From: a phage
Strand: one strand, 5' to 3'
DNA: 43,897 nucleotides
Assembly: GCA_026329315.1 (NCBI GenBank)
Contig: GCA_026329315.1_4342.1
Shown: positions 39,761-43,647 of the stretch, in pieces
Layout: every line of letters begins with the position of its first letter
Numbering within the stretch: the first letter of the stretch is position 1
Position numbers and translations under genes: made by a program
The notes under the pieces: model-generated
What the model was told of the DNA's origin: nothing
The model's input: the letters and a program-made list of their open reading frames with translations, nothing else
Database searches by the model: none

Positions 39761-42009
39761 ACACATTGCTTTACTTAGACTTTGAAACATTCTCCGAAGC
39801 CGATTTGAAGAAAGTCGGCTCCTATGCTTACGCCGAGCATCCAACTACCGAAGTGCTTATCTGTACCTACGCTTTTGACGACGAGCCTGTACAGGTATGG
39901 TATTGCACCGACGGCAGTGATATGCCCGTGGATTTACACCGCGCTCTACGCCGTCTGGTTAAGCCAAACAGTCGCATTAAGATGGTATGGCACAACGGTG
40001 GACTTTTCGATCGCCTAATCATGAAACACTGCTGGGGCTTTGATATTCCGGTAAGTAACACCATTGATACTATGATTTGGGCGTTCCGTCACGCGCTGCC
40101 GGGTTCTCTTGATGCGCTGTGCGAAGTGCTGGGCGTGTCTGCAGACAACGCGAAAGATAAACGCGGCAAGGCTCTGATTAAGCGTTTCTCTAAACCGACG
40201 CCGAAGAACTACAAAATCCGCCGATATACCGCTGAAACGCACCCTGACGAGTGGGCGATGTTCATCAGGTACGCCGTGAGCGACATCACTGCGATGCGTG
40301 AAGTCTTCCATAAGCTGCCGCGTTGGGGTAACTCCGAGTTCGAAGACCGTGTACTGGAACTTGACCAGTTAATCAACGACCGCGGATTTAAGGTTGACGT
40401 CGCACTGGCGGAAGCCGCGATTGAAGCCGTAGAGAAGCACAAGGCACAGTTACAGGAAGAAGCTCAACGTAAATACGGCGGCTCGCTTACCGGTAAGGAC
40501 TTTCTGCCTATTCTACGTGAACTGGCCCCCGCACACCGCATACACAACGCACAGAAGTCGACGCTGAATGACCTGCTGGCCGATGATGATTTACCTGACG
40601 ACGCCCGCACGATTATCGAAATGCGCCTCGGGGCCGCGTCAACAGCGTCCACGAAATATAACCCGCTGCTGTTAGGCCGCTCGTCGGACGACCGACGCCG
40701 CGGTTGTATCCAGTACGGTGGGGCAAAGCGTACGTTACGGTTCGCGGGTAAAGGCTTCCAGCCACAGAACCTGGCGCGCGGGTACTATCATGACGACCCG
40801 AAGAATAAAAAGAAGAAAGTACGTTATGACTGGATGTCAGAGAAGGACTGGTGGAGAGTAACACACCCATTGTCCTACGGAATCGACCTGTTGTTTAAAG
40901 GCCGCGCGCATCGCCGTTTCGATGTAGCCAAGCTAACGGCATCGACGGTGCGTAGCTGCATCATACCGGAAGCCGGGCGTAAGTTTGTCGTAGCTGATTA
41001 CTCTAACGTTGAAGGTCGCGGGTTGGCATGGCTGGCGGGAGAAGAAACCGCTCTCGATACCTTCCGTGCGGGATTGGATATTTACTGTGTAACCGCGGGT
41101 AAGATGTTCGGCATGGACCCTGATTACATTCTCGAAAGCCGTAGTGACCTACGCCAGATAGGTAAAGCATGTGAATTGGGCCTTGGCTATGCTGGTGGTG
41201 TCGGTGCTTTCGTTCAGTTTGCTAAGAACCTCGGCTTAAACCTGGTTGATATGGCAAAAACAATGGACGGGACATTCCCCAACCATATATGGGCCGCTAC
41301 TGCACGCGGCTATGAATGGGCACGTATTCAGGAAGCCAAGCGACCTCCGCGGCCAGGTGAAAAGGATGACCGACCATCGTATATTCTTGATAAGAAAGTG
41401 TGGCGTACCTGCGACGCTATCAAGCGCATGTGGCGTGAGTCACACCCGGAAACAGTAGCTTTCTGGCGTGATATTGAAGACGCGGCTATGGCGGCTATCC
41501 GCAATCCAGGTAAAGAGTTCACTGCGGGACCGCGGGGTGTTAAGTTTTCGCGTAACGTAGAAACGGACAACAACGGCAACAAAGTCGCTGGTTGGTGGTT
41601 GCGCATGACGTTGCCGTCGGGTCGCGTTATGTCTTATCCGGGCGTCGGGTTGAGCGTGTCGAAAGAAACAGATGGAGACGGGAAGGTGTCTACTAACGTG
41701 CGCATTAAGTACCAGGGCGAAAATCAGCTAACCCGTCAGTGGGGGTTCCAGTACACCTACTCGGGTAAACTGGTGGAAAACTGCACTCAGGCATTGTGCC
41801 GTGATTTGCTGGCTAATGCCCTGCTGAACGTAGAAGCAAACGGCTACCCGATTGTACTTCACGTACACGATGAGATTATCTGCGAGACACCAGATTCACC
41901 GGAATACAATGTAGCAGAGCTTGAGCGGTTGATGTGCGAATTGCCGGAATGGGCGGAGGGGTTCCCTCTTGTAGCTGAAGGTGCGGAGATGAAGCGATAT
42001 GCCAAGTAA
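39757..42009 (+). CDS. family A DNA polymerase with 3'-5' exonuclease domain
   Basis: Exo motif LDFETFS; pol motif A DYSNVEGR; motif C HDEI; start at ATG 39757 coupled to upstream stop. Confidence 0.75.
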   Translation: MNTLLYLDFETFSEADLKKVGSYAYAEHPTTEVLICTYAFDDEPVQVWYCTDGSDMPVDLHRALRRLVKPNSRIKMVWHNGGLFDRLIMKHCWGFDIPVSNTIDTMIWAFRHALPGSLDALCEVLGVSADNAKDKRGKALIKRFSKPTPKNYKIRRYTAETHPDEWAMFIRYAVSDITAMREVFHKLPRWGNSEFEDRVLELDQLINDRGFKVDVALAEAAIEAVEKHKAQLQEEAQRKYGGSLTGKDFLPILRELAPAHRIHNAQKSTLNDLLADDDLPDDARTIIEMRLGAASTASTKYNPLLLGRSSDDRRRGCIQYGGAKRTLRFAGKGFQPQNLARGYYHDDPKNKKKKVRYDWMSEKDWWRVTHPLSYGIDLLFKGRAHRRFDVAKLTASTVRSCIIPEAGRKFVVADYSNVEGRGLAWLAGEETALDTFRAGLDIYCVTAGKMFGMDPDYILESRSDLRQIGKACELGLGYAGGVGAFVQFAKNLGLNLVDMAKTMDGTFPNHIWAATARGYEWARIQEAKRPPRPGEKDDRPSYILDKKVWRTCDAIKRMWRESHPETVAFWRDIEDAAMAAIRNPGKEFTAGPRGVKFSRNVETDNNGNKVAGWWLRMTLPSGRVMSYPGVGLSVSKETDGDGKVSTNVRIKYQGENQLTRQWGFQYTYSGKLVENCTQALCRDLLANALLNVEANGYPIVLHVHDEIICETPDSPEYNVAELERLMCELPEWAEGFPLVAEGAEMKRYAK

Positions 42010-42130
42010 ACTGATTATTGCGGTACTGGCGGGATTCGCCGCCGGTGTCTACTGTCACGAGGGTCAATACGGCATGATGGTTGCCGTATTAGGTATGTTA
42101 GTAACAATTTATCTGTGGGTGCTGGAATGA
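41999..42130 (+). CDS. small membrane protein (43 aa, below cutoff)
   Basis: Hydrophobic; ATGA overlap with next ORF. Confidence 0.25.
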   Translation: MPSKLIIAVLAGFAAGVYCHEGQYGMMVAVLGMLVTIYLWVLE

Positions 42131-42225
42131 AAATTTACTGGTTCTACGAAGAAGACCGCCGGATCTGTCCGCGCTGTGGTATTGCGCATACGAAACGTGA
42201 GGGGTGTGTGGATGAGTACGCCTGA
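42127..42225 (+). CDS. zinc-ribbon peptide (32 aa, below cutoff)
   Basis: CPRCG ... C motif; overlaps VRR-NUC start. Confidence 0.25.
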   Translation: MKIYWFYEEDRRICPRCGIAHTKREGCVDEYA

Positions 42226-42499
42226 GGGCAAAATACAGAAATACGCAAAAGACCGATTCGAGGCCATTGGTGGCCTCGTTCGTAAACTTTCCTACGAAGG
42301 ACGTTCCGGCGCCCCTGACCTGCTGGTAATTCTCCCCGGCGGCGTCATCTGGTTCGTCGAGATAAAGAAAGACGAAAGCACGAAGCCGGATCCACACCAG
42401 TTACGGGAGCACGAGCGGATGCGTAAGCGTGGTGCTAATGTTTTTGTCGTTGGTTCGTTTAAACAGGTTGACGCCCTAATAGCGAACTATTATAGTTAG
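42212..42499 (+). CDS. VRR-NUC domain nuclease
   Basis: GAPDLL ... VEIK motif; GAGGGG RBS. Confidence 0.6.
   Translation: MSTPEGKIQKYAKDRFEAIGGLVRKLSYEGRSGAPDLLVILPGGVIWFVEIKKDESTKPDPHQLREHERMRKRGANVFVVGSFKQVDALIANYYS
42468..42496 (+). promoter_or_regulatory. sigma70 promoter TTGACG-N17-TATAGT with palindrome ATAGCGAACTAT
   Basis: Same architecture as the 35893 and 38702 promoters; lies in 3' end of VRR-NUC gene. Confidence 0.55.
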
Positions 42500-42529: not shown

Positions 42530-42721
42530 ATGAAACACGAATATGACCGCAAACCAGCACGTGACATCGTACCTGGCGACATGATTTTCAACGTTAAGCC
42601 CCGTCGGCCTGTTGCCGTTGATACGGTGTACGTCGAGTCGAACGGTAAACTGGTTATCGAAGATGTAACCGGTAACGTTACGGCGTTCGGGCGTAAAGAG
42701 TTAGTTCTGGTGGCAAAATGA
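42530..42721 (+). CDS. hypothetical small protein
   Basis: AAGGA RBS; coupled to methyltransferase start. Confidence 0.4.
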   Translation: MKHEYDRKPARDIVPGDMIFNVKPRRPVAVDTVYVESNGKLVIEDVTGNVTAFGRKELVLVAK

Positions 42722-43647
42722 ACTATTACAACGAATGGGATAAAGGCGCAGCCGCGTGGCTGCGTGAATTAATAAAACAGGGTCACATACCTTTTGGAGT
42801 TGTAGATGAAAGAAGCATTACTGAAGTTAAGCCAGAAGACCTCGACGGATTCACCCAGTGTCATTTTTTCGCTGGTATCGGCGGCTGGCCTCTCGCGCTC
42901 AGACTTGCGGGAGTTCCGGAAGATGCGCCTCTCTGGACGGGAAGCCCGCCTTGCCAACCGTTTAGCGCAGCGGGAAAGCAACTCGGACAGTTCGACCCGA
43001 GACACCTCGCACCTGTGTTCCTCGACCTCATCAGCGAGTGCCGCCCTCCAGTCCTCTTTGGGGAGCAGGTTGCGCCAGCAATTGCAAAATCGTGGATGTG
43101 CGATTTACAAACTCACCTGGAAGGAGAAAACTACGCCGTCGGGTTTGCCGTACTCCCAGCTTGTAGCGTCGGCGCACCGCACAAACGCGACCGACTTTTC
43201 TTCGGCGCGCATAGATTGGCCCACGCCAGCAGTATCACTGATAACAAACGACGTGAACATGCGCAGCACAGACGGCAGGACGAAACCGAACAAACTGGGG
43301 TGGGCCGCCGCGATGACGGCATGGGCGACGCCGACCGCGAACGATTACAGAGGGAGCGGAGAGACAGTGATTCGCAAGGACGGAAAGGACCGGACTTTCG
43401 ACAGGCTGGACTACTCAACGGAGCAGGGACTGAAAATATCGCGACCAATCCGCATCACGGCTTCTGGTCAGAGGCAGACTGGCTCGGATGCCGGGATGGA
43501 AAATTCAGGCCAGTTGAACCCGGCACATTCCCGCTGGCTGATGGGATACCCGCCAGAGTGGGACGATTGCGCGGTTACGGCAATGCCATCGTCCCGCAAG
43601 TAGCTGCTGAATTTATAAAGGCATTCATGGGGGCGGTAAATGAGTAA
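42718..43647 (+). CDS. DNA (cytosine-5) methyltransferase, orphan
   Basis: Motif I FAGIGG, motif IV PPCQPFS, ENV-like FGEQV, motif X GNAIVP; no adjacent restriction endonuclease. Confidence 0.7.
   Translation: MNYYNEWDKGAAAWLRELIKQGHIPFGVVDERSITEVKPEDLDGFTQCHFFAGIGGWPLALRLAGVPEDAPLWTGSPPCQPFSAAGKQLGQFDPRHLAPVFLDLISECRPPVLFGEQVAPAIAKSWMCDLQTHLEGENYAVGFAVLPACSVGAPHKRDRLFFGAHRLAHASSITDNKRREHAQHRRQDETEQTGVGRRDDGMGDADRERLQRERRDSDSQGRKGPDFRQAGLLNGAGTENIATNPHHGFWSEADWLGCRDGKFRPVEPGTFPLADGIPARVGRLRGYGNAIVPQVAAEFIKAFMGAVNE

Follow-up and report, generated by a model that had tools for sequence, protein, structure and literature searches.

How does a C5-cytosine DNA methyltransferase of only 309 residues recognize its target? 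The question is raised by a gene near the end of a 43,897-nucleotide (nt) phage sequence (GenBank assembly GCA_026329315.1, contig GCA_026329315.1_4342.1; 'the window' denotes this whole stretch). The gene, frame A, occupies positions 42718–43647 of the + strand. An earlier note, made from the sequence without database searches, had described it as an orphan methyltransferase with a short Arg/Asp-rich target-recognition segment, implying a short or degenerate target and broad self-protective methylation. A second open reading frame (ORF) of 265 codons, frame B, lies wholly within this gene at 42806–43603 on the same strand, in the +1 frame relative to A, and covers 86% of it (265 of 309 codons; an overlap of about 800 nt). 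The evolutionary data show that both frames are under purifying selection, that both are kept open and that the start of B is conserved. On this evidence, the Arg/Asp-rich 'short variable region' is the out-of-frame shadow of the nested +1 protein. We think it probable, though well short of certain, that the two frames encode the alpha-like (A) and beta-like (B) chains of a two-polypeptide C5 methyltransferase of the M.EcoHK31I type.

Frame A, as predicted from intact motifs and fold, is a genuine C5 methyltransferase catalytic chain. All the motifs that had been noticed in its 309 residues were located: motif I (FAGIGG, residues 51–56, 42868–42885), motif IV with the catalytic Cys (PPCQPFS, residues 77–83, 42946–42966), the ENV-like motif VI (GEQV, residues 115–118, 43060–43071) and motif X (GNAIVP, residues 288–293, 43579–43596). 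To these can be added motif VIII, GAPHKRDRLFF (residues 152–162, with PHKRDR at 154–159; 43171–43203). Motifs I and IV are those expected of the PF00145/Dcm superfamily, and motifs VI, VIII and X lie on the same polypeptide, all conserved, with ratios of non-synonymous to synonymous differences per site (pN/pS) of 0.08–0.33 in frame A. The motifs align with those of M.HhaI rather than being disrupted, which the note had offered as grounds for abandoning the assignment. Pfam PF00145 matches residues 68–186 only (E = 5.6e-17) and hhalign against M.HhaI gives a probability of 97.8 over residues 36–165; both matches end at motif VIII. The PHROG family phrog_363, in contrast, matches A over its full length (7.8e-89). 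An AlphaFold2 (AF2) model of A has the Rossmann-like large domain of C5 methyltransferases at residues 1–170 (predicted local distance difference test score, pLDDT, 55–85) and a C-terminal helix at residues 290–309, while residues 171–289 score below 50 and are predicted to be disordered. In a Foldseek search with this model the best PDB matches were 1dct (M.HaeIII), M.HhaI entries and DNMT2, at E values of about 1e-6. The identification of a C5-cytosine methyltransferase gene with an intact catalytic apparatus thus stands.

The order of motifs in the large domain is itself unusual. Within residues 3–56 (42724–42885), YYNEWD, the motif II equivalent (42724–42741), and the motif III-like VDERSI precede FAGIGG, giving the order II–III–I–IV rather than I–II–III–IV. 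Between motifs I and IV the hhalign alignment to M.HhaI has a gap of 35 residues, phmmer aligned residues 3–13 of A to residues 37–47 of HhaI, and the AF2 strands of A at residues 2–5, 27–30, 47–49 and 72–74 are consistent with a permuted Rossmann order.

What frame A does not contain, between motifs VIII and X, is an in-frame small domain carrying a target-recognition domain (TRD) and motif IX. The Arg/Asp-rich stretch seen by the earlier note does exist, at residues 167–245 (43216–43452), but it is not a TRD: it is hypervariable and evolves neutrally (pN/pS 0.92–0.99), shows 0.03–0.24 identity and mostly gaps over residues ∼167–245 in a 62-sequence alignment, varies greatly in length between relatives (whose entire proteins are 264–449 residues long) and is predicted to be disordered, with pLDDT 23–37. 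Despite its neutral evolution, it is free of stop codons. The chain of reasoning from a short TRD through a short or degenerate target to broad self-protection is therefore not supported, since the apparent region is a neutral, out-of-frame read of the nested ORF. Beyond it, A has a conserved C-terminal block, FWSEADWLGCRDGKFRPVEPGTFPLADGIPAR (43462–43557), followed by motif X, so that the complete order along the chain is II–III–I–IV–VI–VIII, unconstrained linker, conserved block, motif X.

We compared this locus with 64 viral loci from IMG/VR that are 43–100% identical to A (62 loci went into the shuffling analysis) and with bacterial prophage loci, 77 for the openness of both frames and 80 for the spacing of motifs at the 3′ end. 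Both frames were open over almost the entire gene in about 60 of the 64 viral loci, while the third frame reached only 40–90 codons. Of the 77 bacterial loci, 75 had motif IV one frame back (−1) from the B motif and 73 had both frames open, with overlaps of 675–1368 nt (median 900 nt). All indels keep both frames. Closer inspection of nine relatives, including phage K1G, gave the same picture; B is always shifted by +1 against the methyltransferase motifs, and A and B alike stay open over nearly the whole gene.

A frame may stay open through codon bias or a constraint at the nucleotide level, such as RNA structure, and B might on that account be no more than an untranslated by-product of A; codons of A that end in C do automatically enrich B in Ser, Thr and Ala. 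Synonymous-codon shuffles argue against this. For the N-terminal, A-coded part, shuffling predicts about one to five B-frame stops across loci (three to four in Kagunavirus-like loci), and for the B-coded middle two to 12 A-frame stops; none was seen of either kind in 62 loci. The probability of a shuffled frame staying open was 0.000–0.024 in Kagunavirus-like loci and at most 0.31 elsewhere.

Selection was then resolved by region, using Nei–Gojobori pN/pS with codon-position entropy, in window coordinates. From 42806 to 43017 constraint falls on A only (pN/pS 0.12–0.15 in A, 1.7–1.8 in B), and over 43018–43167 on both frames (A 0.28–0.33; B 0.61–0.64), with synonymous differences per site (pS) in A halved. 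Motif VIII (43168–43215) is again under selection in A only (A 0.18–0.23; B 1.5–1.9). The relationship is reversed over 43216–43465, where B is constrained and A is neutral (A 0.92–0.99; B 0.60–0.66). Both frames are constrained at 43466–43525 (A 0.39–0.49; B 0.69–0.83) and, with B dominant, at 43526–43557 (A 0.45–0.62; B 0.22–0.25), before motif X (43558–43600) reverts to A only (A 0.08–0.12; B 0.7–0.9). By this measure each frame alternates between being constrained and being a tolerated shadow of the other, and short stretches constrain both.

The dual-coded stretches leave a second signature, in the choice of synonymous codons. In the A motif VI sequence FGEQV, Phe is encoded by TTT in 103 of 103 loci (background, 118 TTT to 284 TTC) and Val by GTT in 122 of 123, which fixes the Leu-Leu of a B helix. 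Reciprocally, in the B motif HSRW, His is CAT in 97, Ser is TCC in 99 and Arg is CGY in 104 of 105 loci, even in hosts of 60–66% GC, which fixes Phe-Pro-Leu in A. Spacing is equally strict at the 3′ end: of 80 bacterial loci, 71 have the GNA[ILV] of motif X in the −1 frame at exactly 65 nt past the LNP of frame B. The exceptions comprise one locus with the motif at 125 nt, one with GNGL at 65 nt and four without a match; three further bacterial loci have GNAV/GNGL matches additionally in another frame. Because synonymous codons are fixed reciprocally and both frames are kept open, we conclude on evolutionary grounds that at each end of the overlap the shared nucleotides are translated in A as well as in B.

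Frame B has a start of its own. In the window, a GGAG Shine–Dalgarno (SD) sequence (42796–42799, + strand) precedes the ATG at 42806 by 6 nt, and the ATG directly follows an in-frame TAG. Across the family this start is written into the A motif RSIxDV. The Asp codon is GAT in 79 of 93 loci, yielding a B-frame ATG in 77 of 124 loci, and the Arg codon is AGG in 54 of 124 loci as against 68 of 1045 in the background (p = 2e-25), yielding AGGAG 8 nt 5′ of the B ATG. An SD-like sequence is present in 59 of the 77 loci that have the ATG and in only one of the 47 that lack it. The Kagunavirus B start lies six codons upstream of the RSIxDV-type start, and most of the best 150 predicted B-type proteins start at profile position 26 or 32. 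Together with stop avoidance and reciprocal codon fixation, the SD–ATG pair provides evolutionary evidence that the nested ORF is translated from its own start and selected as a protein.

These observations bear on whether the two frames might instead be joined into a single polypeptide by two programmed frameshifts, +1 from A to B after motif VIII and −1 from B to A before motif X. Such an A–B–A splice restores the canonical order of motifs I–VIII, TRD and IX, and X, and the regional pN/pS switches from A to B to A as it would require. Neither junction, however, has a conserved slippery heptamer or stimulator in 31 diverse loci. Double frameshifting also leaves unexplained the openness and partial constraint of B 5′ of motif VIII, where the TTT and GTT codons are fixed, the maintenance of A as an open frame through the middle of the gene, the selection on A across the B motif IX, and the separate SD and ATG of B. 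A Pfam scan of an artificial A–B–A chimera and of C-terminal fragments did not extend the PF00145 match, a result that is uninformative. The lack of slippery sites, the upstream constraint on B, the constraint on A across the B motif IX, the openness of both frames and the ribosome-binding site of B all speak against a pure A-to-B-to-A double frameshift, which we regard as quite improbable.

The product of B belongs to a PHROG family of its own, phrog_1008 (1.8e-59), distinct from that of A. Its first ∼70 residues form an unconstrained leader that is predicted to be disordered. A conserved helix (residues 76–95, 43031–43090) and beta-hairpin (residues 102–122, 43106–43171) follow, within a span that AF2 models with confidence (residues 71–125; pLDDT 66–87 for these elements); they lie in the dual-coded stretch 43016–43180, which in frame A encodes motifs V–VII. 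Then come WxTP modules, of which the window has only two (43217–43354: WPTP at 43217–43228 and WATPTANDYRG at 43322–43354). In the family as a whole these WxTPxAxD modules have the consensus LAGWPTPxAxDxKGG, occur in zero to 10 copies per protein with a median spacing of 36 residues, and their copy number tracks the length of the B protein (r = 0.89). The C-terminal part (43445–43561) consists of a distal TRD-like segment, PIRITASG..., and a motif-IX-like sequence, LNPAHSRWLMGYPPEW (43514–43561). Family members share here an invariant R..T..G segment followed by LNPxHSRWLMG[YFL]PxEW. The B sequence LNPAHSRWLMGYP fits the canonical motif IX pattern LxPxExxxLxGFP, and has B-frame pN/pS of 0.22–0.25. 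The B frame also includes the stretches LTWKEK... and ...WLMGYPPEWDDCAVTAMPSSR.

These features of B weigh further on whether it is translated at all. In favour of an untranslated B, its first ∼70 codons, with pN/pS of 1.7–1.8, show no constraint at the protein level. Against this are the middle of the gene, where B has the lower pN/pS and A is neutral, the peptide repeat with its 36-residue period, indels that without exception keep both frames, an SD sequence and ATG that co-vary, a helix–hairpin that AF2 predicts confidently, and the absence from 62 loci of the several stops that shuffles lead one to expect. That B is merely an open but silent frame is therefore very improbable indeed.

Variation in B can be extreme. 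One B-type protein of 627 residues (P0121) has about a dozen GWPTPxAxD modules, and the matching alpha-frame linker would comprise several hundred unconstrained residues. Some B ORFs have no stop before the next gene (P0207, P0215 and loci L028, L030 and L072, in which the B frame spans 668–2029); these continue without a change of frame and enter either a domain of Dam-type N6-adenine methyltransferases (PF05869, NPPY) or a Cys-rich downstream ORF. They may be real fusions, or the longest ORFs chosen by gene callers.

Given that both proteins are made, as the evolutionary evidence indicates, do they act together? Frame A alone might be the methyltransferase, with a minimal recognition element or with the C-terminal block CRDGKxRPVEP serving for recognition, and B an overprinted protein with another job, such as a regulator, a DNA-binding protein or an anti-defence factor. 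In favour of this, selection acts on motifs I–VIII and X of A and also on a string in it that resembles motif IX; no homology of B with any solved or curated family is detectable; and up to 10 or more WxTP repeats would be unusual for a single TRD. Set against this is the position of the conserved B-coded module, which falls exactly where TRD and motif IX are expected, between motifs VIII and X. Furthermore, the C-terminal LxPxxxxWLMG[YF]P of B fits canonical motif IX better than does the string in A, and the only alignment of B to M.HhaI is colinear with TRD and motif IX (B residues 215–254 against HhaI 249–291, the distal TRD recognition loop and motif IX), although with E = 0.28 it is not significant. 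In frame A, AF2 confidently models only the large domain and the motif X helix. Finally, M.EcoHK31I provides a precedent for a nested pair acting as one enzyme. An A that works alone beside an unrelated B is in our view unlikely, while a good deal less so than frameshifting or a silent B.

Several observations nevertheless count against a two-chain enzyme. Frame A keeps its motif-IX-like string (RPVEPGTFPLADGIP) under selection, and given this string alpha might be self-sufficient. B has no match in Pfam, in NCBIfam or among PDB sequences (the last searched with the single sequence and with a 94-sequence profile), and its hhalign match to the TRD and motif IX of M.HhaI is insignificant taken alone. 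AF2 monomer models have low confidence for B residues 126–265 and A residues 171–289. The TRD of M.EcoHK31I is assigned to alpha, not beta. The codon-fixation statistics count related sequences as independent, and expression and interaction of A and B are predictions from sequence.

With these reservations, we favour a scheme in which one DNA stretch gives rise to two polypeptides in two frames that would together form one cytosine-5 DNA methyltransferase. The alpha chain (A) would supply the S-adenosylmethionine-binding catalytic large domain, with motifs II–III–I–IV–VI–VIII, and the C-terminal motif X helix, the two being tethered by a disordered, neutral linker whose sequence would be dictated by the repeats of frame B. 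The beta chain (B) would start at its own SD and ATG ∼30 codons into A with a dispensable-looking disordered leader of ∼70 residues; its helix–hairpin is probably a docking element, and after it would come between one and ten WxTPxAxD modules (∼36 residues each) that resemble recognition units, then a loop like that of a distal TRD, and finally motif IX. We infer that the chains associate, that B confers target recognition and that both are needed for methylation, by analogy with M.EcoHK31I, whose beta ORF lies within that of alpha, in another frame, and which needs both chains.

The pair is widespread. At the DNA level the end of the window matches 472 phage records, and tblastn with the C-terminal 171 residues of B matches 244, including N15 gene 58, the epsilon15 cytosine methylase and phages of Rhodobacter, Xanthomonas, Bordetella, Erythrobacter, Klebsiella and Burkholderia. 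The B family comprises 6,507 clusters at 90% identity and 21,976 at 50% identity, and alpha-type clusters number at least 8,000 at 90% identity; we regard B as an ancient protein family. Its relatives reside in phage or prophage replication or recombination modules. Annotation has mostly followed one frame: the frame with the methyltransferase motifs is the annotated coding sequence in eight of the nine relatives inspected. In phage R6L, the 127-residue coding sequence annotated as 'cytosine-specific methyltransferase' is the B frame itself, and in K1G the nested ORF is annotated as 'putative Mte8-like protein', overlapping a 'C-specific methylase'. In annotations the nested ORF appears as 'hypothetical', 'Mte8-like' or a second 'DNA methyltransferase'. 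Mte8 itself receives only an incidental mention in the literature found, which does not explain the name.

A search for single-frame relatives, in which the B module would be in frame with PCQ, found PF00145 in none of the 120 top matches among B-type proteins. PCQ and LNP do share a frame in two bacterial loci, L087 (Erwinia tracheiphila) and L140 (uncultured Burkholderiales). Each of them changes frame immediately behind motif IV (…PCQPFS.AG…), at nearly the same position, which joins the N-terminus of A to frame B, and motifs VI–VIII carry on in the other frame. Because those motifs stay in the other frame, we rejected these loci as ancestral single-chain forms and attribute them to indel mutations or errors; a single-base indel is most likely, and they could be pseudogenes or homopolymer errors. 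In a further prophage locus, L155 (E. coli ECCTRSRTH03), NCBI's annotation pipeline PGAP splits alpha, as it does at times in this family, into two 'incomplete' pseudogene pieces with an unalignable linker between them, which is likely an annotation artefact. A tblastn search of plasmids for a restriction–modification-linked relative gave only matches annotated as DNA cytosine methyltransferase and no obvious such relative, neighbourhoods not being inspected.

The genomic setting of the window gene is that of an orphan. The window belongs to a Kagunavirus: its end shares 99.9% identity with Escherichia phage VB_EcoS-Golestan (Kagunavirus, Guernseyvirinae), where DNA polymerase is followed by two small ORFs, a VRR-NUC 'Holliday junction resolvase', another small ORF, methyltransferase, helicase and primase, in that order. 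As had been noticed earlier from the window, there is no adjacent restriction endonuclease, and none among the annotated Golestan neighbours, so that the cognate partner expected of a system like that of M.EcoHK31I is lacking. Frame A is coupled to the upstream ORF by an ATGA (42718–42721, + strand) in which its start overlaps the upstream stop; at its 3′ end the ATG of the helicase gene (43640) overlaps the end of A over 43640–43647, the stop TAA being at 43645–43647. In phage vB_Eco_K1B4 (PMC12645636), two genes that are co-transcribed with the DNA polymerase gene may be the two overlapping ORFs. Further upstream in the window, a 43-residue, strongly hydrophobic ORF at 41999–42130 (+ strand; MPSKLIIAVLAGFAAGVYCHEGQYGMMVAVLGMLVTIYLWVLE), hypothetical in Golestan, starts within the last codons of the DNA polymerase gene, and the ORF at 42176–42499 (+ strand), named VRR-NUC or Holliday junction resolvase in relatives, has a Pfam VRR_NUC match that is weak and below the cut-off (E = 0.09).

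Broad self-protective methylation is also disfavoured by the behaviour of related phages. In the BASEL study (PMC11990801), Kagunavirus isolates are reported to be highly sensitive to the restriction–modification systems tested, and the argument extends only to those systems.

If A and B are one enzyme, the consequences reach beyond this phage. It is evenly balanced, in our estimation, whether a large family of phage and prophage C5 methyltransferases consists of obligate two-subunit enzymes in which a +1 nested subunit carries recognition, its repeats set one or several specificities and the linker of the catalytic chain is a neutral tether. What databases at present list as an ordinary one-chain methyltransferase would then be a two-subunit enzyme; phage and prophage genes called 'DNA cytosine methyltransferase', of which there are thousands, are read in one frame only, and predictions of specificity from the alpha sequence alone, like that of the earlier note, would be misleading. 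At 0.7–1.4 kb, the overlap would be among the longest same-strand dual-coding regions known from prokaryotic viruses, and among the most widely conserved; for the evolution of overlapping genes it is a rare and testable case of an overlap that is both long and long conserved. Mechanistically, what has been a curiosity of M.EcoHK31I would be extended to a major natural class of split methyltransferases, and a modular recognition subunit built from repeats could help in engineering targeted methylation. We found no report on this A/B family in the literature on nested, overlapping or frameshifted phage methyltransferases; as far as the literature was searched, neither the prevalence of the arrangement nor its orphan phage setting nor the placing of a recognition-like module in the nested frame appears to have been described, while the type of architecture is known from one studied enzyme.

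That enzyme is M.EcoHK31I (YGGCCR), the heterodimeric C5 methyltransferase of Lee, Kam & Shaw (1995), whose architecture was established by experiment. According to PMC2836561 and PMC3404938, alpha carries motifs I–VIII as well as X, beta carries motif IX, both chains are needed, and beta can dispense with its N-terminal ∼42 residues. As in M.EcoHK31I, the ORF of the smaller subunit in the window lies wholly inside the gene of the larger, in another frame, and the dispensable N-terminal ∼40 residues of the M.EcoHK31I beta chain have their counterpart in the first ∼70 residues of B, which are unconstrained and predicted to be disordered. The differences are that the window system is an orphan in the replication module of a lytic phage and not half of a restriction–modification pair, that its nested ORF approaches the length of the host gene and carries conserved, modular, recognition-like repeats, and that the region of alpha between motifs VIII and X is neutral, the TRD of M.EcoHK31I being assigned to its alpha chain; the likeness drawn here is one of architecture.

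M.AquI (CYCGRG) is a second two-subunit C5 methyltransferase; according to PMC3404938, its small subunit bears motif IX and motif X. Like it, the window system would be a naturally split enzyme whose recognition-region and motif IX parts lie on a second polypeptide; unlike M.AquI, it keeps motif X on the catalytic chain, and its second chain is nested in its entirety, out of frame. In layout, the window family, with its varying complement of WxTP modules (0–10, spaced by ∼36 residues), recalls another group of phage enzymes. Bacillus phages SPR, phi3T and rho11s encode multispecific orphan C5 methyltransferases with a variable number of tandem recognition modules of ∼40 residues, but these are single polypeptides in one reading frame. 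That each WxTP module might likewise specify a target is pure inference from this resemblance.

Embedded genes whose products act as one complex have a familiar example in the lambda spanins Rz and Rz1, Rz1 being encoded in the +1 frame within Rz. Their function is unrelated, and Rz1, of about 60 codons, takes up a small part of Rz, whereas the overlap is about 800 nt in the window and 675–1368 nt in relatives. With the single-chain enzymes M.HhaI and M.HaeIII, finally, frame A shares the fold of the large domain and motifs I, IV, VI and VIII. It departs from them in having the motif II–III segment N-terminal to motif I and in the absence of an in-frame small domain, the TRD and motif IX being supplied, on our proposal, from the +1 frame.

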